The translations under genes were made by a program, and so were the position numbers. A DNA stretch of 64,000 nt, from contig OY760142.1 of the NCBI GenBank assembly GCA_963663225.1, positions 1,184,001 to 1,248,000 on the forward strand, written 5' to 3'. Positions 7,550 through 21,637 of the stretch are shown piece after piece (within the stretch, counting starts at the first letter, position 1; each line of letters begins with the position of its first letter). The notes below the pieces were generated by a model that was not told the origin of the DNA, did not search any database, and worked only from the letters and a program-made list of their open reading frames with translations. The stretch comes from Nitrospirota bacterium (GTDB taxonomy: Bacteria; Nitrospirota; UBA9217).

Positions 7550-8143
7550 TCAACCTCCCTGTCCTTTTTTCAGCTCCAGAATTACCAATTTTGCGATAGA
7601 TTTAAGGGTATCAAACACTCCCGTGCCTTCAGTTGCTACCGCCTCAAAATCGGGAACTCCGCGCTGATTGAGTGCCATCTTCATTTCACCCAGCGGCACG
7701 ATGTTCGGTAAATCCCGTTTATTGTATTGAATCGTAAATGGCACTTTGTTTAAATCATACCCCTGATCTGCAAGGTTCACCCGCAGGTTTTCTATGCTTT
7801 CTATGTTGGCTTCCATGCGCTCAACCTGGGAATCCGCCACAAAAACAACACCGTCTACACCCTTTAAAATGAGCTTGCGGCTGGCATCATAAAACACCTG
7901 ACCGGGCACGGTGTAAAGATGAAACCTTGTTTTAAAACCCCGTATTTCACCCAGCGCAAGCGGCAAAAAATCGAAAAATAAAGTCCGTTCTGTTTCGGTT
8001 GCAAGGGATATCATCTTGCCCTTGCTGTCAGGGTTGGTTTTTTTATAGATCCATTGCAAATTGGTTGTCTTCCCGCACAAACCGGGACCATAAAAGACTA
8101 TTTTGCAGTTAATTTCTCTCGAGGAATAATTGATAAAGGACAT
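7550..8143 (-). CDS. mglA: Small Ras-like GTPase MglA
   Basis: MSFINYSSREINCKIVFYGPGLCGKTTNL, TVPGQ, NKRD. Confidence 0.97.
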   Translation of the reverse strand: MSFINYSSREINCKIVFYGPGLCGKTTNLQWIYKKTNPDSKGKMISLATETERTLFFDFLPLALGEIRGFKTRFHLYTVPGQVFYDASRKLILKGVDGVVFVADSQVERMEANIESIENLRVNLADQGYDLNKVPFTIQYNKRDLPNIVPLGEMKMALNQRGVPDFEAVATEGTGVFDTLKSIAKLVILELKKGQGG

Positions 8144-8193
8144 GGACCGAAGTTCCTCTCCTTAAGCGTTCAGAAAACTGTGCGGTTGGACGA

Positions 8194-8688
8194 CTACCCA
8201 AAAAGTTTATCAATATCTTCATCAGTTATCTCGGCAAAGGGAGATTCTACACCCTTATCTGCTCCTTTTTCTGATTCTACTTTTTGAAGAAGATGGCCAA
8301 ATATACTGCCGAGCGATTCAGTGGTCTTCTTCACTCGAAGCCGGACAAGCCCGAGTGATGAGCGCTGGTCGAAAATAACCACCAGGATGACGCGCTGGCC
8401 GATGATGGAAATGTGAATGTTATCGCGCTGGCCTTCATGGAAAAGAATCGAAAATTCTTTTTCTCCCAGCAGTTTCGCCATGCCGCCGGTGGCTGCGATA
8501 TTCCCGGCCGTCAGTGATGCAAGAGACGTTGTATCCAGGTTGTCGGTCTCGCCGGTAGCTGCAATGAGCTGGCCGTTCTTATCGACAAGAAAGACAACTT
8601 TAGCGTTCGCTTGCTGAAGAAGACGCTGAAGTTCCGCGTCTATTTGCTTAAATTCTTCTTCGTACATTACCAAATCGGAGCCCAGCAT
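8194..8688 (-). CDS. mglB: Roadblock/LC7 GTPase-activating protein MglB
   Basis: LDTTSLASLTAGNIAATGG, SSLGLVRLRVKK; adjacent to mglA. Confidence 0.96.
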   Translation of the reverse strand: MLGSDLVMYEEEFKQIDAELQRLLQQANAKVVFLVDKNGQLIAATGETDNLDTTSLASLTAGNIAATGGMAKLLGEKEFSILFHEGQRDNIHISIIGQRVILVVIFDQRSSLGLVRLRVKKTTESLGSIFGHLLQKVESEKGADKGVESPFAEITDEDIDKLFG

Positions 8689-11072: not shown

Positions 11073-11366
11073 TTATTTTCCCTCCTCTTCCATGACGATT
11101 GCTTTGTTGCCTTTTTTCCCGGGGCACTCCAGGGCGCATACGCCGCAGCCCTTGCAGTAATTGTAGTTGATGCCGGTCATCTTTTCGTTTTCAACGTTGA
11201 TTGAAAGATCCGGGCAGTACACCCAGCAAAACAGGCACTGAATGCAGTTTTCCTGGATCCAGCGCGGTTTCAGTGTACGCCAGGAACCTGTTTCATATTG
11301 CTCGGAGTTTCCTGCATCCTTGATAACTCCACCCAATGGTAGTTCTTTCCAGTTCATCTGTTTCAT
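11073..11366 (-). CDS. porD: Pyruvate:ferredoxin oxidoreductase delta subunit (2x[4Fe-4S])
   Basis: TGSWR, CIQCLFCWVYCP, CKGCGVCALECP. Confidence 0.95.
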   Translation of the reverse strand: MKQMNWKELPLGGVIKDAGNSEQYETGSWRTLKPRWIQENCIQCLFCWVYCPDLSINVENEKMTGINYNYCKGCGVCALECPGKKGNKAIVMEEEGK

Positions 11367-11938
11367 CCCTGCTTTACCTCCTCAAAACCGCGCTTCGCTG
11401 CGGTGAGATTTGCGTCGATAACCTTCTGCGCAAACTTCTTTCCAAAGCTGCCTTTCACTTCCTCTATCAAGCTGTCAATACCCAGAAGACCCGATGCCTT
11501 GGTAAGCGCGCCGAGCATGGGTGTATTCGGCATGGGCCTGCCGATGGTCTCAACTGATATCTTCGTTGCATCAACCGTGAAAATCTTCTGGGAAGCCTTT
11601 GCTTTGAGTTTCTCCCGGACTTCCTTCGGAGTTTTGGACGTATTGACTACAAAAACAGCGTCGTCCGATGCGCCTTCGGCAACGTTAATTGCATCGAGGA
11701 GCGTTGCGTCTGCCACTGCCACCACGTTTGGGTACAATACCGGACAATGCATCCGGAGCTCACCCGAGCTGATCCGATTATACGCACGAAGCGGTGCACC
11801 TGCGCGCTCCGGGCCATATTCTGGGAATGCCTGCACGTGACGACCGCCGCTCAGACATGCGTCGGCGAACACCTTGGCTGCCGTAACCGTGCCCTGGCCG
11901 CCCCTTCCGTGCCACCTTACTTCTACCATTTCTGCCAT
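11363..11938 (-). CDS. porC: Pyruvate:ferredoxin oxidoreductase gamma subunit
   Basis: HGRGGQG, FPEYGPERAGAP. Confidence 0.95.
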   Translation of the reverse strand: MAEMVEVRWHGRGGQGTVTAAKVFADACLSGGRHVQAFPEYGPERAGAPLRAYNRISSGELRMHCPVLYPNVVAVADATLLDAINVAEGASDDAVFVVNTSKTPKEVREKLKAKASQKIFTVDATKISVETIGRPMPNTPMLGALTKASGLLGIDSLIEEVKGSFGKKFAQKVIDANLTAAKRGFEEVKQG

Positions 11939-12063
11939 TCTGATTACCTCCTCCTCTTCGAATTAATTTAATGTAAAATAAGACAAAATCTGCTGAATAC
12001 AAGCCGGTGCCCAACCCAGCTGCTACTCCGCTGATTCTGTCAGCAAAACGTTTTTATCACGCA

Positions 12064-13146
12064 TTACATCTCCCGCCGTCCTTCAAGCGCCCGCTGTACC
12101 GTATTCTCGTCCGCATATTCAATATCTCCCCCAACCGGGAGGCCGTATGCGATCCGGCTGACGCTGATGCCGAGCGGCTTGATAAGTTTCGACAGGTACA
12201 AGGCCGTCGTTTCCCCTTTTACCGTGGGATTCGTGGCAAGAATAACTTCCTTTACGCCGTTTGTTTTCAGCCGTTCTATAAGACCGGTGATTTTAAGATC
12301 GTCAGGACCGACTCCGTCGAGAGGAGCAATAGCGCCCATAATGGCATGATAGCGTCCCCTGAATATCCCGGTTTTTTCCAGAATAAGAATATTACTCGGC
12401 TCTTCGACTACGCAAATGCGGGTGCTGTCCCGTTTTTCATCACGGCAGATACTGCAAATTTCTTCTTCCGTGATATTATTGCAAACGGAGCAATACCGGC
12501 TGTTGTTCTTCAGATCCTGAATCGCCTGCGCGATCCCGGCAGCATCATCGTACGACATGCTGAGAATGGCAAAGGAAAGCCTCTCTGCGCTTTTTCTGCC
12601 GATGCCGGGGAGCTTCATGAAGGCCTCGACCATTTTACCGAGCGCCTGGCCCGAAACTTCGGCAGCCTGTGTTCCGTGTTGCTTGTGCTCCTGCCGGCCT
12701 TTGTTTGTTGCGACGCTCTTTGTCTTAATGATCATTTTCAGATTAGTTCCCTTGCCGACTTCTGATGAAATATAAAAAAGGTCGGAGTAGTTCTTAATAT
12801 TGCACAACCCCATTCCGGCTCCAAAACCCATGTCTCTGACTTTCTGGGTCGCCGTTGACCATCCAGGCTGCATGGCAAGTTCAATATCTGGAATTCCCGG
12901 TCCTTCATCAATCGCCTCGACCACGATGCGGTCAGGAACAACACAGAGACGAATAATCCCCTTTCGAGCGTAAGAAACAATATTTATTTCAGACTCGTAG
13001 GCTACGAGAACCGCTCTTCGCACCACGTCGTGTGAAAAGCCGTGGTGCCTTAAAACCGTTTTAATATTTCTCGCTGCCTTTCCGGCATGATCAAAATTAT
13101 CGCCGACAACCGCAAATGCGTTTTCGTACAGGGGCCTGTCATTCAC
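12064..13146 (-). CDS. recR: Fusion: anti-sigma-type Ser/Thr kinase (HATPase) domain + RecR
   Basis: aa ~1-140: YESEINIV, IDEGPGI, GWSTA, GFGAGMGLCNIK; aa ~165-360: KLPGIGRKSAERL HhH, C4 Zn finger, Toprim (VVEE, LATNPT, IEYAD). Confidence 0.9.
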   Translation of the reverse strand: MNDRPLYENAFAVVGDNFDHAGKAARNIKTVLRHHGFSHDVVRRAVLVAYESEINIVSYARKGIIRLCVVPDRIVVEAIDEGPGIPDIELAMQPGWSTATQKVRDMGFGAGMGLCNIKNYSDLFYISSEVGKGTNLKMIIKTKSVATNKGRQEHKQHGTQAAEVSGQALGKMVEAFMKLPGIGRKSAERLSFAILSMSYDDAAGIAQAIQDLKNNSRYCSVCNNITEEEICSICRDEKRDSTRICVVEEPSNILILEKTGIFRGRYHAIMGAIAPLDGVGPDDLKITGLIERLKTNGVKEVILATNPTVKGETTALYLSKLIKPLGISVSRIAYGLPVGGDIEYADENTVQRALEGRREM

Positions 13147-13154
13147 GAGAGTGT

Positions 13155-13520
13155 CTATTTACCTTCCACTTTTTCTATGCAGCCGCGGAACCCTTTGCTG
13201 TAAAGCCTTCCACAAATCTCAAAAAGAATATACTTTGTACTGAGAACGGGAATGTTCAATTCCTCCGCCAACTGAAGCGACTCATAGGGAAGTTTTTTAC
13301 CCCTGCCCAGAAGAACAGCCGCAATATCGAGGACATCAGCCGTTCTCAATACCTGCGGATTTGTTAATCCGGTTATCAAAAGAGTGCCGGTCGATGCAAA
13401 CGCAAGCACATCGCTCATAAGATCTGCAACAAATGCGTTTGACACCTCGATGTGATCAAGCCGGTCTTCGCCGACGAGTACTTCCGCGTCAAGAAAATCT
13501 TTAATGTCACGGAGCTTCAC
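13155..13520 (-). CDS. DRTGG-domain protein (hydrogenase accessory)
   Basis: ADLMSDVL, LITGLTNPQVLRTA. Confidence 0.88.
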   Translation of the reverse strand: MKLRDIKDFLDAEVLVGEDRLDHIEVSNAFVADLMSDVLAFASTGTLLITGLTNPQVLRTADVLDIAAVLLGRGKKLPYESLQLAEELNIPVLSTKYILFEICGRLYSKGFRGCIEKVEGK

Positions 13521-13559: not shown

Positions 13560-15356
13560 CTAGTGTCCTGATGCCTTCTTCGGCTCACATCCGCCAAGCA
13601 CGACGTCTTTATGAGGCAGCTCCGTTCCCCGTTCAGTATAATGGGTGTGAAGCAGCTCATGTGACTTGTGGCCCAATGGTTTTTTCAGGAAAACATCGTA
13701 TACTTTTTTGATAGAGGGATTTTCGTGCGACTGACGGTATTTCTGGACCGAACCGTCATCCGCGTACAAACCGCCCGCGCGGCACTGCCTGATTTCGTTG
13801 GTCGTCGGCAGAGGACCGCCGCCGCCGCCGATGCAACCGCCCGGACAGGTCATGACTTCGATAAATGCATAGGGTGATTTTCCCTCCCGCACCTGGTCCA
13901 ACAGCTTGCGGGCGTTCGCCAAACCGTGTGCGACAGCCACAGAAACCGGCCCCAACTCGCCCACAGGAAGCGTTGCCGCTTTAACGCCGTCCAGACCGCG
14001 GACGGGAGTCACATTCAAGTCTTGCAGGTTTTTCCCGGTCACCACGGCATACACGGTGCGAAGGGCGGCTTCCATAACGCCTCCGGTCGTCCCGAAAATG
14101 GTTCCTGCACCAGTGTATTCGCCCATGGGGGCATCGTAGTCTTCGTCTTTGAGATTTACGAAATCGATGCCGGCTTCCTTAATCATCCGTGCAAGTTCGC
14201 GGGTCGTGAGAACATAGTCTACGTCGCGGTATCCGCTGCTGCACATCTCAGGTCTCTTCGCCTCAAACTTTTTGGCAGTGCAGGGCATGATGGAAACGGA
14301 GACAATATTTTTCGGATCGATGCCGGCGGTTTCGGCGTAGTAGGTTTTTACCATGGCGCCGAACATCATCTGCGGAGACTTGCAGGTTGACAGGTGAGGA
14401 AGCAGATCCGGGTAAAAGTGTTCGCAGAACTTGATCCAACCCGGCGAGCAGGAGGTGATCATGGGAAGCTTCCCGCCTTCTTTGACGCGCTGCAGAAGCT
14501 CGTTCCCTTCCTCGATAATAGTAAGGTCCGCGGTAAAATTCGTATCGAACACCTTGTGGAACCCGAGTTTCCTGAGTGCGGCGATCATTTTTCCGGTCAC
14601 CAGCGAACCCGCGGGCATTCCGAATTCCTCGCCCAGCGTGACACGGACGGCCGGTGCTTCCTGAACAACAATATGCTTGGTTGGATCCTGAAGTGCTTTC
14701 CAAACTTCGTTGACATCGTCTTTTTCGTACAGCGCACCGACGGGGCATGCCATTATGCACTGTCCGCAGGCAATACAGTTTGTTTCCAGCAAGGGGAGAT
14801 CAAACGCGGGTATCACCTTGGCGTTGCTTCCTCGAAACGCTGGAGTCAACACGCTCACCGTCTGGACCTTTTCGCAAACGGCAACGCACCGGTGGCAGTT
14901 GATGCACTTTCTGGTGTCGCGTACAATGGAAGGGCTGGATTCGTCAATCGCCCCTTCTTTCGGAAACGCGGGAATATCGAACCTCACATCACGCACGCCC
15001 GTGTATTCCGCGACCTTCTGGAGTTCGCAATTGCCGTTTCTGATGCAGTAGTTGCATTCCGTCGGGTGATTGGCCAGAAGAAGCTCCACCACCATTTTGC
15101 GAGCATTGCGCACCGCTTCGGTTGTCGTTCGCACGACCATTCCTTCGGAAACGGGAAAAACACATGATGCAACATGGCCCCGCTGGCCCTGCACATCCAC
15201 CAGGCAAACACGGCAGGCGCCCGGCGTATGACCGAGTTCTTGTGACGCGCACAGGGTAGGAATCCTGATTCCTGCTTTTTTCGCAGCTTCCAGGATGGTA
15301 GTGCCCGGCTCTACCGCAACTTTGATATTGTCAATGGTTAAGTTAACTAAAGACAT
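13560..15356 (-). CDS. hydA: [FeFe]-hydrogenase catalytic subunit (group A, multimeric)
   Basis: H-cluster motifs TSCSPGW, MPCTAKKFE, EVMTCPGGCIGGGG; N-terminal 2Fe-2S, His-ligated 4Fe-4S, 2x4Fe-4S. Confidence 0.96.
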   Translation of the reverse strand: MSLVNLTIDNIKVAVEPGTTILEAAKKAGIRIPTLCASQELGHTPGACRVCLVDVQGQRGHVASCVFPVSEGMVVRTTTEAVRNARKMVVELLLANHPTECNYCIRNGNCELQKVAEYTGVRDVRFDIPAFPKEGAIDESSPSIVRDTRKCINCHRCVAVCEKVQTVSVLTPAFRGSNAKVIPAFDLPLLETNCIACGQCIMACPVGALYEKDDVNEVWKALQDPTKHIVVQEAPAVRVTLGEEFGMPAGSLVTGKMIAALRKLGFHKVFDTNFTADLTIIEEGNELLQRVKEGGKLPMITSCSPGWIKFCEHFYPDLLPHLSTCKSPQMMFGAMVKTYYAETAGIDPKNIVSVSIMPCTAKKFEAKRPEMCSSGYRDVDYVLTTRELARMIKEAGIDFVNLKDEDYDAPMGEYTGAGTIFGTTGGVMEAALRTVYAVVTGKNLQDLNVTPVRGLDGVKAATLPVGELGPVSVAVAHGLANARKLLDQVREGKSPYAFIEVMTCPGGCIGGGGGPLPTTNEIRQCRAGGLYADDGSVQKYRQSHENPSIKKVYDVFLKKPLGHKSHELLHTHYTERGTELPHKDVVLGGCEPKKASGH

Positions 15357-15432: not shown

Positions 15433-18400
15433 CTAAGCTCCTCCATCGCACCGCATGCAACGGCTTGCTTCCAGGATGGCGACCATCTTTTTATAGCCAA
15501 TCTCAACTTCCTTGAAGTTGTTCTTCCTGTCTGCAACATGCAGTTCGGGCATCTTCGCCTGGGGGGTCTCTTCGGATTCTTCATCAATGACGAACGGAAT
15601 GTCGATCTTTTCCTCCGCCGGCTCCACATATGCCGGTTCACCATTGATTTTCCTGATGTGGCTGTCCATATCGGATGCCGCCTGATGGCCCGCAGCAATG
15701 GCTCCGATAACGGTGTCAGGACCGGTGACCATGTCGCCACCCGTAAAGTATTTCGAATTTGTCGTCTGAGACTTGCATCCTGCGGCCAAACTGCAGGTCG
15801 ACCACTTGCTGACGCTGATTCCGCTGTCCTTCGGAATAAAGGACAGATCCGGCATCTGACCGATGGCCGAGACAATGGTGTCCACGCTTAAGGTGAATTC
15901 TGACCCCGCAATAGCGGTCGGTCTCTTTCTTCCGCTTCTGTCGAAGTCGCTCAGTTTCATGCGTTCACAGACAATACCGTTGACAGCGCCACCCTGCTCA
16001 ACGATCTTGAGCGGGGCAACCAGGTATTCAATCTTAATGCCTTCTTCCTCCGCTGCATGGATTTCCTCCTCAGCAGCCGGCATGTCCTTCCTCTCGCGGC
16101 GGTACAGGATGGTAACATCCGCGCCGAGACGCTTCGCAACGCGGGCGGCATCAATGGCGGAATTTCCGCCGCCGACTACGGCAACCCGGGTACCGAGCTG
16201 TTTTTTGCCCGTCAACCAGGCCTCTTCATTCGTGCAAAAGTCTCTCAAGAATTCCACGCTGCCGAAAACGCCTTTCAGGTTCTCGCCCGGAATGCCCATG
16301 GGCTGGCTCTTGTGCGCGCCGGCAGCCAGATATACATAGTCGAAGTCTTTGTTTACCTGTTCGAAGGAAATTTCTCTGCCTACGCGGGTGTTGCATTTAA
16401 TATCGACGCCCAGCGCCTTTACGTTGTCGTTGATTTCTGCGGCAAGTATGTTTCGGGGAAGCCGGTACGAAGGGATAGCCCAGCGAAGCATACCGCCTGC
16501 TTCCGGCAGTTCTTCGAATATGGTCACTTTGTACCCGCGGAGAGCCAAATCACGCGCAGCAGTAAGGCCGGCGGGGCCCGCTCCGATAACAGCGATTTTT
16601 TCTTTTCTCGTTACGGCAACCGGTGCTGTCTGGGGCCGCGGCGCATTGTCGGTGATGAACCTCTTGAGGAACTTGATGGCAAGCGGCTCATCAAGATTGG
16701 ACCGGCGGCACTTTGACTGGCACTTATGATCGCAAACGCGGCCGCAAACCGAGGGAAGCGGATTTGTTTTGATCATGACCTTATACGCATCGCTGAAGCG
16801 CTCTGCGCGGATAAGTGCAATATATGCCGGAATGTCCATTTCAACCGGGCACGTATGCTGGCACGGCGATTTGAAGAGCGGCGAGCAGACAACGGCTTTG
16901 CACCTTTTGTCCCGGATATGCGCTTCGTATTCATCTCTGAAATACCGGATCGTGCTCAGAACCGGATTCGGGGCGGTCTGGCCAAGACCGCACAGAGACG
17001 AACTTTTGATAACAGCGGCCATTTCCTCGAGAAGCTCTATATCGCCTTCCCTGCCCTTGCCCTGCGTGATGTTCGTCAGGATTTCAAGCATTCTCTTGGT
17101 TCCTTCACGGCAGGGAGTGCACTTTCCGCACGACTCCTCCTGACAGAAGTCCATAAAGAACCGGGCAATATCCACAGCGCACTTGTCTTCGTTCAGTACG
17201 ATCAGCCCGCCGGAACCCATAATGGCTCCCAGTTCCATTACTCGCTCAAAGTCAACCGGCGTATTAAGATATTCAATCGGAATCATGCCGCCGGAGGGGC
17301 CGCCCAGTTGTGCGGCCTTAAATTTTTTCCCGTTGGGAATGCCACCGCCGATATCGTAGACAATCTGGCCGAGCGTTGTTCCCATCGGTACTTCGACAAG
17401 GCCGACGTTGTTCACGTCTCCGGTGAGGGCGAATACCTTGGTTCCCTTGCTCTTCTCTGTTCCGATAGCATTATACCAGGAGGCCCCCTTGAGAATGATC
17501 TGGCCCACACTGGCAAACGTCTCAACATTGTTCAAGACAGACGGCTTGCCCCACAGTCCCGAAACGGCCGGGAAAGGCGGACGCGGACGCGGCATACCGC
17601 GCTTGCCTTCAATGGATGTCATCAGGGCAGTCTCTTCACCGCAGACGAACGCTCCGGCGCCCTGGTAAATTTCTATCTCAAGATCAAATCCCGTGCCCAG
17701 AATGTTCTTTCCCAAAAGTCCATACTCTTTTGCCTGGTTGAGAGCAACCTGCATCCGGTGGATGGCAAGAGGATACTCTGCACGGCAGTAGATATATCCC
17801 TGGTGGGCGCCGATTGCCTTGGCCGCAATAACCATGCCTTCAATGACGGCATGGGGATCGCCTTCGAGCACGCTTCGGTCCATAAACGCACCGGGATCGC
17901 CTTCGTCGGCGTTGCAAAGAATATATTTTACATCCCCGGGGGTCTGCGCACAGAACTTCCACTTAAGGCCGGTGGGAAAACCGCCGCCGCCTCTGCCGCG
18001 CAGGCCCGAATCGAGAACTTCTTTTACAATCTGCTCCGGCGTCATTTCCGTCAGGGCCTTCGCCATTCCGGCGTATGCGTCCCTGGCAATGGCTTCGTCA
18101 ATGTTTTCCGGATCAATTTTGCCTCTGTTTTTCAGCACAATCAGCTTCTGGAGGGCAAAAAACGGAATTTCTTCCATTGTGGGGATGCGCTTTTCCGTCA
18201 CCGGTTCTTTATAGAGAAGCCGCTCCAGCACCCGTCCCTTTACCAGATGCTCTTCAACCAGCTCCGGCACGTCTTCCGGTTTTATCATCATGTAAATAAC
18301 ACCTTCCGGATAGACCACCATGATCGGCCCCTGGGCGCAAAAACCATTGCACCCGGTTTCTACAATCTTTACCTGGTCTGAAAAACCGCGTTTATCAATC

Positions 18401-18492
18401 TCTTCCTGCAATACCTGCTTTGTTTTGATGGACCCGGATGCATGGCAACCGGTTCCTCCACAGATTAAAAAGTGCGAACGAAATGCTTTCAT
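15433..18492 (-). CDS. hydB: NuoF/HydB-like diaphorase fused to a GltD-like FAD/NAD(P)H oxidoreductase
   Basis: GRGGGGFPTG, NADEGDPG, GAGAFVCGEETAL, CGKCTPCREG, then SPCQHTCP, CGRVC, GAGPAG, GGGNSA, YRRER. Confidence 0.9.
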   Translation of the reverse strand: MKAFRSHFLICGGTGCHASGSIKTKQVLQEEIDKRGFSDQVKIVETGCNGFCAQGPIMVVYPEGVIYMMIKPEDVPELVEEHLVKGRVLERLLYKEPVTEKRIPTMEEIPFFALQKLIVLKNRGKIDPENIDEAIARDAYAGMAKALTEMTPEQIVKEVLDSGLRGRGGGGFPTGLKWKFCAQTPGDVKYILCNADEGDPGAFMDRSVLEGDPHAVIEGMVIAAKAIGAHQGYIYCRAEYPLAIHRMQVALNQAKEYGLLGKNILGTGFDLEIEIYQGAGAFVCGEETALMTSIEGKRGMPRPRPPFPAVSGLWGKPSVLNNVETFASVGQIILKGASWYNAIGTEKSKGTKVFALTGDVNNVGLVEVPMGTTLGQIVYDIGGGIPNGKKFKAAQLGGPSGGMIPIEYLNTPVDFERVMELGAIMGSGGLIVLNEDKCAVDIARFFMDFCQEESCGKCTPCREGTKRMLEILTNITQGKGREGDIELLEEMAAVIKSSSLCGLGQTAPNPVLSTIRYFRDEYEAHIRDKRCKAVVCSPLFKSPCQHTCPVEMDIPAYIALIRAERFSDAYKVMIKTNPLPSVCGRVCDHKCQSKCRRSNLDEPLAIKFLKRFITDNAPRPQTAPVAVTRKEKIAVIGAGPAGLTAARDLALRGYKVTIFEELPEAGGMLRWAIPSYRLPRNILAAEINDNVKALGVDIKCNTRVGREISFEQVNKDFDYVYLAAGAHKSQPMGIPGENLKGVFGSVEFLRDFCTNEEAWLTGKKQLGTRVAVVGGGNSAIDAARVAKRLGADVTILYRRERKDMPAAEEEIHAAEEEGIKIEYLVAPLKIVEQGGAVNGIVCERMKLSDFDRSGRKRPTAIAGSEFTLSVDTIVSAIGQMPDLSFIPKDSGISVSKWSTCSLAAGCKSQTTNSKYFTGGDMVTGPDTVIGAIAAGHQAASDMDSHIRKINGEPAYVEPAEEKIDIPFVIDEESEETPQAKMPELHVADRKNNFKEVEIGYKKMVAILEASRCMRCDGGA

Positions 18493-18576
18493 GTGAATAC
18501 CTTCCTCCTTCACGTAATTACCTTTGGATTCTGCAAGAGAGCACGCTCCGCACCCTTGCCGATAATCGCCATGGTC

Positions 18577-18945
18577 CTAGCCCCGTGCAATGGCAAACGT
18601 GGACTGCACCTCTCCCTGAAGAACATGCCGTTTGAACACCTGGCGCATCTTGTTTGCGTCCATATGTCCGTAGACAATCGGCTCTTTTCCGAGAATCTCC
18701 ACCGTAACCATAGGCTCTCTGCTGCACATTCCAGCGCAACCGGATGTCGTCACCATCACATCCGTCGTCTTTGCTTCCGCAATTTCGCTCATCAATGAAT
18801 CCATTACTGCGCGCGCACCTGCGGAAATACCACACGTCCCCATATGCACGGTAACCTTTGCTCTCTGGCCGCCTTCCCGGAGCGCGGTTTCTGTGAGGAC
18901 TCTTTCCTTGATTTTTTTCAAGTCTGCTATTGAAATTTTCGGCAT
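18577..18945 (-). CDS. Thioredoxin-like [2Fe-2S] ferredoxin subunit (HndB/HydD-like)
   Basis: VHMGTCGISAGAR, SGCAGMCSREP. Confidence 0.9.
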   Translation of the reverse strand: MPKISIADLKKIKERVLTETALREGGQRAKVTVHMGTCGISAGARAVMDSLMSEIAEAKTTDVMVTTSGCAGMCSREPMVTVEILGKEPIVYGHMDANKMRQVFKRHVLQGEVQSTFAIARG

Positions 18946-18968: not shown

Positions 18969-19475
18969 TTAATTATACTTGTTCAGCACTTCTTTAACTT
19001 TTGCTGGTTTCAAGCGTCCGTGAACATTGTCATTAACAAAAATCACCGGCCCCAACCCGCAGGCGCCGATGCAACGAACCGTCTCCAACGTAAAACGCCT
19101 GTCTTCGGTCGTCTCACCCTCTTCTACCTTCAGTTCCTGCTTCAGGTTCTCATACAGGGCCTTGCCACCGCGGACGTAGCAGGCCGTGCCCAGACATACC
19201 CGCACGGTATACTTGCCGCGCGGGCTCATGGTAAAGAACGAATAAAACGTCACCACGCCGTACACCTGGCTCAGGGGGAGATTAAGACCGTTTGCAATTA
19301 TTTTCAGAATAGGCATCGGCAGAAATTCCAGAACCATCTGTGTTTCTTCTAAAACGGGTATCAATGCGCCTGGCTTGTTTTTATACTTTGCTATGATTTC
19401 ATCAACCTTTTTCAGCTGTGCGGGTGTAAATTCCTTCGATATATCAATATCAACATTCTTTACTTTGGCCTTCAT
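18969..19475 (-). CDS. hydC: NuoE-like [2Fe-2S] subunit (HydC/HndA)
   Basis: VTFYSFF, CLGTAC, CIGACGLGP. Confidence 0.93.
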   Translation of the reverse strand: MKAKVKNVDIDISKEFTPAQLKKVDEIIAKYKNKPGALIPVLEETQMVLEFLPMPILKIIANGLNLPLSQVYGVVTFYSFFTMSPRGKYTVRVCLGTACYVRGGKALYENLKQELKVEEGETTEDRRFTLETVRCIGACGLGPVIFVNDNVHGRLKPAKVKEVLNKYN

Positions 19476-19512: not shown

Positions 19513-20061
19513 TCATGCTTCGGCTTCTATTTCCTTCAGGCCCGCTTGTATATGCGCCTTGATGAAGTGCAAAACCTCTGCATGATTAATAGGGACGTTT
19601 TCAATTTCTTTTTTGATGACTCTCGTGTCTAAAAGATACTCCCGGTCATTGTGCTGATGCCGGTAAATAAATTCAACAGTGCTGTTTCCCGCTATCAGCG
19701 AGACCAGGGTGCTTGCTATATCACCAAGCGGTTGACGGTCAAGATGACTCAGTTTAAATTCTGCAGCTACCCGTGTTCCTCTGCCCTTTTGTGACTCGAG
19801 AACGACTCTTCCGCTCGCTTTTTCCGCTGCCTGTAAAAACATCGGAAGCCCAAGCCCGACATGGCGGACTGTTTTGGTTGTGAAAAACGGGTCCGTGGCT
19901 TTTTTAAGAACTGCCTCTGTCATGCCAGAGCCGTCATCTTGTATTTCCAGGGACAATGTATCTCTTGAGGTGTCTTCTCTCAAGGTTATAAAAACTGTTT
20001 TGGCACCGGCCCGGGTGGAGTTTTCCGCAATGTCCAAAATATGCAGGGAAAGCTCAAGCAC
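19513..20061 (-). CDS. Histidine-kinase-like ATPase (hydrogenase accessory)
   Basis: LHILDIAENS, DDGSGM, DPFFTTK, GLGL, HLDRQPLGD. Confidence 0.9.
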   Translation of the reverse strand: MLELSLHILDIAENSTRAGAKTVFITLREDTSRDTLSLEIQDDGSGMTEAVLKKATDPFFTTKTVRHVGLGLPMFLQAAEKASGRVVLESQKGRGTRVAAEFKLSHLDRQPLGDIASTLVSLIAGNSTVEFIYRHQHNDREYLLDTRVIKKEIENVPINHAEVLHFIKAHIQAGLKEIEAEA

Positions 20062-20064
20062 GGA

Positions 20065-20802
20065 TCACTCCTGGACGTATCGTCCGCCTTGGCGCTTAAA
20101 AGCCATCCTTACTTCTTCAAATGTTCCTTGCTCGAGAAACATGGTTGTTATGCCTTGGCCGATGTCCTGAATAAAATGTGCGTCTGAAGACTCAATAAAA
20201 GGAAACCGGCTGAGTTCTGGGTATTGTTGTCGGGCGTCTCTTAGCCCTGTCTGGTGTGTTATTTCAAGTGCATCCAAGGGCATGTCCGGATCTACGAAAC
20301 CAAGCTGGCTGATGACACTAAAAGTTTCCCGATCGATATGTGAGGCGATTGCAAGCCCGTCCAAGCGGTGAATATGATTAATAATTTCAAGCAGCGACAA
20401 TGTAGTCGCCCCGAGAAGAAATTTGTCATTAAAGCCTTCGACCTCGTCAGCCTCGTTGACGATGGCCTGGCAGCCGAATACCTCCTCTCGATTCGTACCG
20501 GAAAGATTACCATAGACAATGTCCTGGATGTTCTTCAGGCGGTTTACGGTATCAAAAAGAGCCAGCAAGTGTACTTCTTCTCTGCTGGTTATTTCCATCC
20601 CAGGAAGCACGATCAGGGGTTTTCCTGAAGCGGACTTTAATACATATGGGACATTCTCTGAAGCATTATGATCGCAAACGGCGATAATATCCAGCCTTTC
20701 AGCCAAGGCTTTAGCAACCACCGCGCGGGGGTACATATCCAATTCTGCGCAGGGTGAAAGGCATGTGTGTATATGAAAATCGCAACGGAAAGCCCTGAGC
20801 AT
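20065..20802 (-). CDS. PHP-domain phosphoesterase
   Basis: DFHIHTCLSPC, DHN, GMEI, SHID, SSDAH. Confidence 0.92.
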   Translation of the reverse strand: MLRAFRCDFHIHTCLSPCAELDMYPRAVVAKALAERLDIIAVCDHNASENVPYVLKSASGKPLIVLPGMEITSREEVHLLALFDTVNRLKNIQDIVYGNLSGTNREEVFGCQAIVNEADEVEGFNDKFLLGATTLSLLEIINHIHRLDGLAIASHIDRETFSVISQLGFVDPDMPLDALEITHQTGLRDARQQYPELSRFPFIESSDAHFIQDIGQGITTMFLEQGTFEEVRMAFKRQGGRYVQE

Positions 20803-20869: not shown

Positions 20870-21214
20870 TTAGGTACCACTTTTCTTCATCAAGTCGTAT
20901 ATTCTGCCGGTGATCTCAAACGCGGAGAGATCAGATATCATAATTGGAATATCTTCTTGTCTTCCCTTCTCAAGGGTATCCTTTGCCGGCTCACAACCCT
21001 GCACAAGAATAATACCAGCATGGTCTTTCAGGCTGGCAACTGCAACAATATTTTGGTGAACCTGTCTGGTAATCCAGATGTCTCCCTCACGGCTGTTTGC
21101 CATTACATCACTCAGCAAATCGCCGGTATATCCGCCCAGCACCTTTGTTTGCATCTTGTCTTCACCGGACACTATTCTAAGTCCCAAGGTCTTGACGATA
21201 GACTGCAATTCCAC
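20870..21214 (-). CDS. DRTGG-like protein
   Basis: GYTGDLLSDVM, WITRQVHQNIVAVA. Confidence 0.88.
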   Translation of the reverse strand: MELQSIVKTLGLRIVSGEDKMQTKVLGGYTGDLLSDVMANSREGDIWITRQVHQNIVAVASLKDHAGIILVQGCEPAKDTLEKGRQEDIPIMISDLSAFEITGRIYDLMKKSGT

Positions 21215-21316
21215 GTCTTTAGGCTCCTTTGTGGGAAGACAAAATAACGAGAAACCTGATTTCCGCTCAGCAGCTCGGTGCTGCCGGAGACAGCTTATCA
21301 GCTGCCCGCCTTTCTC

Positions 21317-21637
21317 TTACAGCAGCCCCGGCGGAAGACCCATGCCTGCTGTAAGATTCGCCATCTCTTCTTTCATAAGCTCCTGTGATTTACGAAGGGC
21401 TTCATTTACAGCGGCGACAACCAGGTCCTGGAGCATTTCTGTATCATTCGGATCAACCACCGAAGGGTCTATCTTAATTGAAATTATTTCCTGTCGCCCG
21501 TTGGCAACCACAGTAACCATCCCGCCGCCAGCCGACGTCTCAACGGTTTTACCCGCTGCCTCTTCCTGGATTTTTTTTACGCGCTCCTGCATCTGCTGAG
21601 CCTGTTTCATTAAGTTTCCAATAATATTTTTTGACAT
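21317..21637 (-). CDS. ybaB: YbaB/EbfC nucleoid-associated protein
   Basis: LMKQAQQMQ, AGGGMV, EMLQDLVVAAVNEA. Confidence 0.96.
   Translation of the reverse strand: MSKNIIGNLMKQAQQMQERVKKIQEEAAGKTVETSAGGGMVTVVANGRQEIISIKIDPSVVDPNDTEMLQDLVVAAVNEALRKSQELMKEEMANLTAGMGLPPGLL

Follow-up and report, generated by a model that had tools for sequence, protein, structure and literature searches.

We analysed a 64,000-nucleotide stretch (hereafter the window) of the genome of a Nitrospirota bacterium (GTDB lineage UBA9217; GenBank assembly GCA_963663225.1, contig OY760142.1, forward-strand positions 1,184,001–1,248,000), in which an ATPase gene of an [FeFe]-hydrogenase cluster and the recombinational repair gene recR are read as one open reading frame (ORF). 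The fused frame lies on the reverse strand (12064–13146; GTG start at 13146, stop codon at 12064–12066) and encodes 360 amino acids (aa), arranged as an ATPase moiety (aa 1–149; 12700–13146), a linker (aa 150–170; 12637–12699) and a RecR core (aa 171–360; 12067–12636). Pfam assigns aa 19–139 to HATPase_c_2 (34.3 bits against a gathering cut-off of 27.4) and recognizes the RecR modules behind it: RecR_HhH (aa 171–211), RecR_ZnF (aa 217–236), Toprim_4 (aa 243–333) and RecR_C (aa 335–358), the last carrying the C-terminal motif. NCBIfam names the C-terminal part recR (TIGR00615; 253.6 bits against an equivalog cut-off of 162.55), and the four cysteines of its C4 zinc finger (C219, C222, C231 and C234) do not vary across 19 sequences. 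No stop codon separates the ATPase from RecR; the ORF list, Pfam and NCBIfam together confirm the uninterrupted frame of ATPase, linker and complete RecR described in an earlier note on this DNA. That note also saw no ATG with a ribosome-binding site ahead of the first RecR helix, which needs correction: in-frame ATGs occur at codons 138, 172 and 177, and in-frame internal starts are limited to these three. In a search of the whole 3.26-Mb single-contig genome the fusion was the sole recR (255.1 bits). The same genome encodes RecO (144.7 bits, above the cut-off), and its best match to RecF reached 28 bits against a curated cut-off of 172; the presence of RecO and RecR with no RecF above cut-off suggests a RecOR-only pathway. 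The gene name should state the fusion, rather than plain 'RecR' or 'ATP-binding protein'.

The fusion is real and inherited. Another species of the same genus (G004; the genome of the window is G000) carries the same frame with 6 differences in 1,068 nt and 0 indels, and a metagenome contig (L026) holds the end of the preceding DRTGG-domain gene, the 360-codon fusion and porG at 74% nucleotide identity to the window, with no indel over the 360 codons. Logan contigs from two further studies, one from each, cross the junction with 0 gaps (X5, 12195–13302; X6, 12000–13211), and the 90% cluster of one fused protein (P0003) contains four full-length members of 360 aa. The same frame thus stands in five independent assemblies at nucleotide identities from 99% down to 74%, with no stop or indel across the junction, and an assembly error, as contemplated in the earlier note, is excluded at the level of assembled contigs, on which this support is based. 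Two draft genomes of the genus have contigs that break at the same nucleotide, ~66 nt into the ATPase gene and thus within its first 22 codons (end of G004:C1, start of G004:C67 and end of G002:C334; L018, L019 and L020). Inside the ATPase, the pair of G004 contigs shares an overlap of exactly 55 nt, which marks a break in the assembly graph and not a rearrangement; the shared break probably stems from strain variation that split the graph. A recR was not found in G002, a genome that is 83% complete.

The ATPase moiety corresponds to an entire stand-alone protein of hydrogenase clusters, tail included. Matches to this half comprise 2,145 short proteins (30–197 aa); the best 120 of these are 141–161 aa long, are 68–75% identical over 91–99% of the query and end a few residues past a shared MIIKT motif. 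Their identity to the query is as high as that of the ATPase halves of the other fusions (72–76%). Six of the best short relatives have organism names, which are Syntrophales, Syntrophaceae or Deltaproteobacteria. One stand-alone protein of 145 aa (P0499) aligns gap-free to aa 6–149 and stops one residue after the equivalent of K149, so that the ATPase of the fusion is complete to K149; judging from these homologues, the stand-alone form is normally ~147 aa long (146–149 aa). Of the 50 columns that show no variation among 52 ATPase homologues, the fusion of the window keeps all, and the three fusions keep 50, 49 and 49. E51/N55, D80-x-G82-x-G84 and G107–G113, which we take to be the N, G1 and G2 motifs for ATP binding, are among the residues invariant in the 52 homologues, and G1 and G2 align with SpoIIAB. 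The SpoIIAB equivalog itself (TIGR01925) scored 43.2 bits, below its cut-off of 135. The four STAS-domain matches of the genome all lie outside the window (two adjoin other HATPase_c_2 genes), and neither a STAS substrate nor a sigma factor domain was found among the scanned cluster genes.

Behind K149 the frame continues directly in RecR sequence. RecR proteins of the family to which the window belongs are 221–235 aa long, against ~200 aa in the other families of the phylum, owing to a polar N-terminal extension of 25–45 aa that ends in a conserved GKAGAQAAEVSGKALG-like stretch and is absent in the phylum's other families (the extension is seen in P0005–P0120 and at loci L004–L013, L016, L017, L024 and L025). 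G150–G170 of the fusion aligns with the rear part of this extension. What was lost at the joint is the ATPase stop, the spacer, the recR start and roughly half of the RecR extension. The polar linker of ~25 aa proposed in the earlier note is there as a low-confidence segment of the structure model; it is not a new spacer, being composed of the native tail of the ATPase up to K149 and then of the RecR extension.

In the AlphaFold2 model (mean predicted local distance difference test (pLDDT) score of 81), the RecR block (aa 171–360) mostly scores 91–98 and the ATPase forms a separate domain with an uncertain lid (aa 86–130); the tether between them falls below 50 at aa 145–154 and averages 49 over the block of aa 151–160. 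Foldseek ranked RecR structures first (3VE5 and 3VDP; E value of 1e-22, template modelling (TM) scores of 0.82–0.85), in line with the sequence match of the RecR half to 3VDP (E value of 7e-70; TM score of 0.82 by fold), and matched the ATPase half to SpoIIAB, RsbW and UsfX. Purifying selection acts on both halves. In the comparison of the window with L026, the ATPase has a nonsynonymous divergence (dN) of 0.12 and a synonymous divergence (dS) of 2.6 (Nei–Gojobori); RecR has a dN of 0.077, with a dS too saturated to compute. The stretch that connects the two (aa 138–170) is 52% identical, with a dN of 0.345 and again a dS too saturated to compute.

The neighbourhood of the fusion points to an insertion. 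Relatives have the gene order dnaX–ybaB–recR–porG, and in the DNA of nine relatives ybaB ends 3–20 nt ahead of recR, with porG, porD, porA and porB following where the contig extends that far. In the window and in G004, by contrast, an [FeFe]-hydrogenase cluster of ~8.6 kb with the same gene order in both sits between ybaB (21317–21637, reverse strand, as are all genes named here) and recR, and porG (11363–11938) follows recR as in the relatives, serving as the right-hand anchor of synteny. The flanking genes are 76–92% identical to those of the relatives (dnaX, 60–69%), whereas the cluster genes are only 42–66% identical to a hydrogenase-like cluster that the relatives have beside nuoABCD and whose layout differs. 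This difference argues that the insert is not the vertically inherited cluster, and we infer that it was acquired separately. Base composition gave no clear foreign signature for the insert.

The inserted cluster starts with a DRTGG-like gene (20870–21214), a PHP-like gene (20065–20802), an HATPase_c gene (182 aa; 19513–20061), a NuoE-like gene (18969–19475) and a small thioredoxin-like 2Fe–2S gene (18577–18945), of which the DRTGG-like, PHP-like and thioredoxin-like genes fall below the Pfam cut-offs. These are followed by a HydB-like flavoprotein of 1,026 aa in which NuoF is fused to a GltD-like module (15433–18513), the [FeFe]-hydrogenase catalytic subunit HydA (598 aa; 13560–15356; group A6 by NF040763, 893 bits against a cut-off of 765), which is the only full-length HydA of the genome, and a DRTGG-domain gene (121 aa; 13155–13520; 35.3 bits against a cut-off of 25.2), 8 nt downstream of whose stop the fusion begins with its GTG. 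The association of this type of ATPase with [FeFe]-hydrogenase clusters that have DRTGG and PHP genes, as stated in the earlier note, is thus seen in the window and also in its relatives. In open-access full text we found no account of what the ATPase and DRTGG genes of hydrogenase clusters do.

Other features of the locus are recorded here as observations. The cluster of the relatives (L014, L015, L021 and L023) lies directly after nuoA–D and encodes DRTGG, CBS::HATPase_c_2 (317 aa), DRTGG, PHP, HATPase, NuoE, 2Fe–2S and NuoF proteins and a protein of 620 aa, the last of which resembles HydA over the N-terminal Fe–S domains only (42% over 212 aa); the flavoprotein, a NuoF::GltD/NfnB-like FAD/NAD(P) protein of 1,026 aa in the window, has a counterpart of 596 aa in the relatives. 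A near-repeat of 12 nt (11 of 12 bases) occurs at both inferred insertion joints (~21302–21313 and ~12691–12702, reverse strand); one copy directly follows the ybaB stop and reads E-K-G-G-Q, like the start of the RecR of relatives, and the other forms codons K149–Q152. As an insertion scar the repeat was rejected and is kept as a lead only, given that 47 of 500 shuffles reached its score and that it is absent in L026. The reading of 'EKGGQ' as a remnant of the first recR codons was likewise dropped as not significant (63 of 500 shuffles matched or exceeded the best local alignment to relatives). Behind the por genes, a roadblock-type protein and a small Ras-like GTPase are encoded at 7550–8688 (reverse strand), presumably MglB/MglA-like as judged by eye from their sequences; the recR–porGDAB–mglBA block is present in all relatives read.

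The fused architecture is rare. Only 3 of the 120 best RecR relatives combine both parts and the other 117 lack the ATPase, as expected from the earlier note's statement that RecR is usually a stand-alone protein. From the side of the ATPase, 3 of the best 120 longer homologues are joined to RecR and 117 have other partners, which include CBS pairs, DRTGG and hydrogenase-like sensor domains. Two of 64 family genomes carry the fusion (G000 and G004), and another 47 of the 64 encode a CBS::ATPase protein whose ATPase is 43–52% identical. The best 150 matches among 1.84 billion representatives yielded no further HATPase::RecR protein, with all 8 proteins of at least 290 aa checked. These 8 long RecRs include DnaX::RecR, YbaB::RecR, RecR::TRAM and a doubled RecR. 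The odd architectures occur as single clusters (DnaX N terminus::RecR, P0243; YbaB::RecR, P0272; RecR::TRAM, P0260; doubled RecR, P0239), and two of them unite RecR with its usual operon neighbours. By these searches the HATPase::RecR architecture appears confined to one small clade. The search of relatives that the earlier note had in mind thus turned up the architecture nowhere else, and its remark that the fusion had not been described agrees with open-access full text, where we found no description. Neither recurrence in independent lineages nor wide retention, which would mark an adaptive fusion, was found.

Sister sequences seem to preserve what is left of the ATPase. Five RecR clusters (P0004, P0010, P0027, P0066 and P0071) begin with or contain the last strand of the ATPase (MI[IV]K...), and the longer members P0508 (252 aa) and P0509 (240 aa), like P0071, have a degenerate stub of ATPase residues ~112–143 ahead of RecR. 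P0508, which aligns to aa 112–360 of the fusion, retains only 7 of 15 ATPase columns that are invariant there. In a quick RecR tree with Shimodaira–Hasegawa-like approximate likelihood ratio test (SH-aLRT) support, which leaves 62 of its 115 inner branches unresolved, all five of these stub-type RecR clusters fall together with the fusions P0002 and P0003 (SH-aLRT of 88). We read the stub-type RecRs as putative descendants that shed the ATPase and that would now start RecR at or near the equivalent of Met138. For both P0499, the 145-aa ATPase (ending ...MIIKTKDNALNKT), and P0004, a RecR of 223 aa (starting MIIKTKSNALNKG...), one contig of 2,529 bases is on record. If they share that contig, a duplication of ~12 codons separates the two genes, a possible intermediate or fission product.

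In our judgement the fusion is, with moderate confidence, a tolerated by-product of insertion in which the halves work independently, the link between them being historical and not regulatory. An [FeFe]-hydrogenase cluster of ~8.6 kb (DRTGG, PHP, HATPase, NuoE, 2Fe–2S, NuoF::GltD, HydA, DRTGG and HATPase_c_2, in this order) was inserted between ybaB and recR in an ancestor of this small clade and took away the recR start together with roughly the leading half of the polar N-terminal extension. The last cluster gene, normally a stand-alone ATPase of ~147 aa, has lost its stop and now reads into recR; from the sequence and the selection on the ATPase it follows that every translation of the ATPase must yield a two-domain protein of 360 aa. 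In the cell, the ATPase half would work alongside the neighbouring DRTGG protein as part of a poorly understood hydrogenase-associated module and the RecR half would serve as the RecR of the cell together with RecO. We propose that the extra domain is tolerated because it is carried on a flexible tether of ~27 aa, at an N terminus that already bore a disordered extension. As the main consequence, expression of recR would now ride on transcription of the hydrogenase operon and on the start codon of the ATPase, with Met138 as a possible second source of RecR. RecR does not seem to need the ATPase, as the stub-type sister sequences keep RecR with only a degenerate remnant of it. The synteny, the stop of the stand-alone ATPase at the joint and these remnants favour the by-product of insertion that the earlier note offered as one of two explanations; the other, a link from redox or H2 signalling to recombinational repair, gained no supporting evidence from the analyses run.

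An artefact, be it a mistake in sequencing or assembly or a decaying pseudogene, that merged two genes is exceedingly improbable: the contig breaks within the first 22 codons of the ATPase in two draft genomes could be taken as a sign of it, but the exact 55-nt overlap of the G004 contigs identifies a graph break, the frame recurs without an indel in the five assemblies, the dN/dS of the ATPase is ~0.05 and the RecR score is well over the curated cut-off. Somewhat more room, though still short of likely, must be given to the idea that the working RecR is a separate protein of 223 aa started at Met138 (ATG at 12733–12735, reverse strand), with the full-length fusion as a side product in which the RecR half is of little account. 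A weak Shine–Dalgarno-like AAGGGA lies ~11 nt upstream of codon 138 (−5.5 kcal/mol), which by comparison is no weaker a signal than that of the fusion's own GTG (−6.8 kcal/mol); the L026 equivalent of Met138 is similar (−5.7 kcal/mol), and well-equipped genes of the window have −8 to −13 kcal/mol. Four RecR gene calls of the same clade (P0004, P0010, P0027 and P0066) begin exactly at this residue, the stub-type sequences regain conservation at it while the residues before it vary freely, and a sigma-70-like site (TTAAGA-17-TATATT; 12797–12769, reverse strand) lies in the ATPase coding region ~35 nt upstream of the ATG. However, Met138 is conserved in stand-alone ATPases also, so that its presence needs no RecR start, and the Shine–Dalgarno-like bases are codons of the conserved GKGT motif. 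The promoter-like sites of the region number 2, against a shuffle expectation of 2.0, and the site is weaker by eye in L026. Even if this alternative is true, the fusion protein is made.

The remaining alternative is that the fusion is adaptive, with the ATPase sensing or passing on what state the hydrogenase module is in (ATP, redox or H2) and gating RecR, thereby tying repair to energy metabolism. We regard this as quite unlikely, and the specific version in which the ATPase is an ATP- and redox-responsive switch that docks on or releases the RecR ring, tuning RecOR loading of RecA to the hydrogen and energy state, as very doubtful. In favour of an adaptive fusion, at least three lineages have kept it whole beyond the point of synonymous saturation, with every ATP-binding motif conserved, it is the sole recR of the genome, and the ATPase domain is a promiscuous signalling module that also occurs in fusions with CBS pairs, DRTGG and hydrogenase-like sensor domains; an excerpt of PMC11406978 notes an HATPase_C domain in group C1 hydrogenases. 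On the other hand, the fusion is found very narrowly, the joint looks precisely as the loss of a stop after insertion would leave it, the tether evolves fast, sister sequences seem to have dropped the ATPase and retained RecR, and a RecR-type partner is not known for the ATPase family, 117 of whose 120 best longer homologues have other partners. Several points nonetheless weigh against the by-product of insertion that we prefer. An adaptive link would equally lead one to expect purifying selection on both halves, and retention of the fusion past synonymous saturation in at least three lineages means that it does no harm at the least and may be of use. P0001 is unresolved at the base of the tree and is not placed with P0002 and P0003, and some of the stub-type RecRs (P0004, P0010, P0027, P0066, P0071, P0508 and P0509), which are known as proteins only, may be clipped gene calls and not decayed fusions. 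The one RNA-library contig (X20) spans only 12031–12222, far from the joint, and may reflect DNA carry-over. Tolerance of RecR for an N-terminal addition of 170 aa is assumed; RecR is sensitive to added domains, and an excerpt of PMC6451095 states that C-terminal fluorescent fusions abolished the function of Escherichia coli RecR.

As a by-product of insertion, the fusion would be a clean and datable example of an operon insertion that decapitates a housekeeping gene, which then borrows the start of the last inserted gene, and both the intact fusion and apparent later stages of its decay are visible in public data. It would also mean that a hydrogenase operon governs recR in these organisms. 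RecR can apparently bear a folded N-terminal domain of 150 aa, which would be useful for tagging given the loss of function with C-terminal tags in E. coli (excerpt of PMC6451095). A functional link would give RecR its first known built-in signalling input and would be a direct tie at the protein level between anaerobic energy metabolism and recombinational repair.

Compared with known RecR proteins (TIGR00615; 3VDP, 1VDD and 4JCV), the RecR half has the same layout of HhH, C4 zinc finger, Toprim and C-terminal parts, the same fold and the same single copy. Unlike them, it has no start of its own and carries 170 additional N-terminal residues that include a predicted folded ATPase domain, and its gene ends a hydrogenase operon instead of lying directly behind ybaB. 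The putative YbaB::RecR, DnaX::RecR and RecR::TRAM proteins likewise join RecR to an adjoining gene, none of them with an HATPase and each as a single cluster of the best 150. The nearest solved relatives of the ATPase half are the anti-sigma-factor serine kinases SpoIIAB, RsbW and RsbT of partner-switching systems (1TIL, E value of 1e-7 by sequence), with fold matches to SpoIIAB chains (TM scores of 0.64–0.71), RsbW (6M36 and 6M37) and UsfX (8IH8); unlike SpoIIAB, it scores 43 against 135 bits with the equivalog model and has a DRTGG protein as neighbour, with no STAS partner nearby. The CBS-pair::HATPase_c_2 proteins of relatives (~317 aa) belong to the same ATPase family (43–52% identity) and also have a DRTGG gene upstream, but their ATPase is at the C terminus and has no link to recR; a counterpart was not found in G000 with the query used. 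The closest likeness is to the stand-alone HATPase_c_2 proteins of [FeFe]-hydrogenase clusters (such as P0388, P0391 and P0499), which JGI labels 'anti-sigma regulatory factor' or 'RsbT': similarity runs from end to end and both are encoded behind a DRTGG gene, and the difference is that the ATPase of the window has no stop of its own after ~150 codons and RecR follows.

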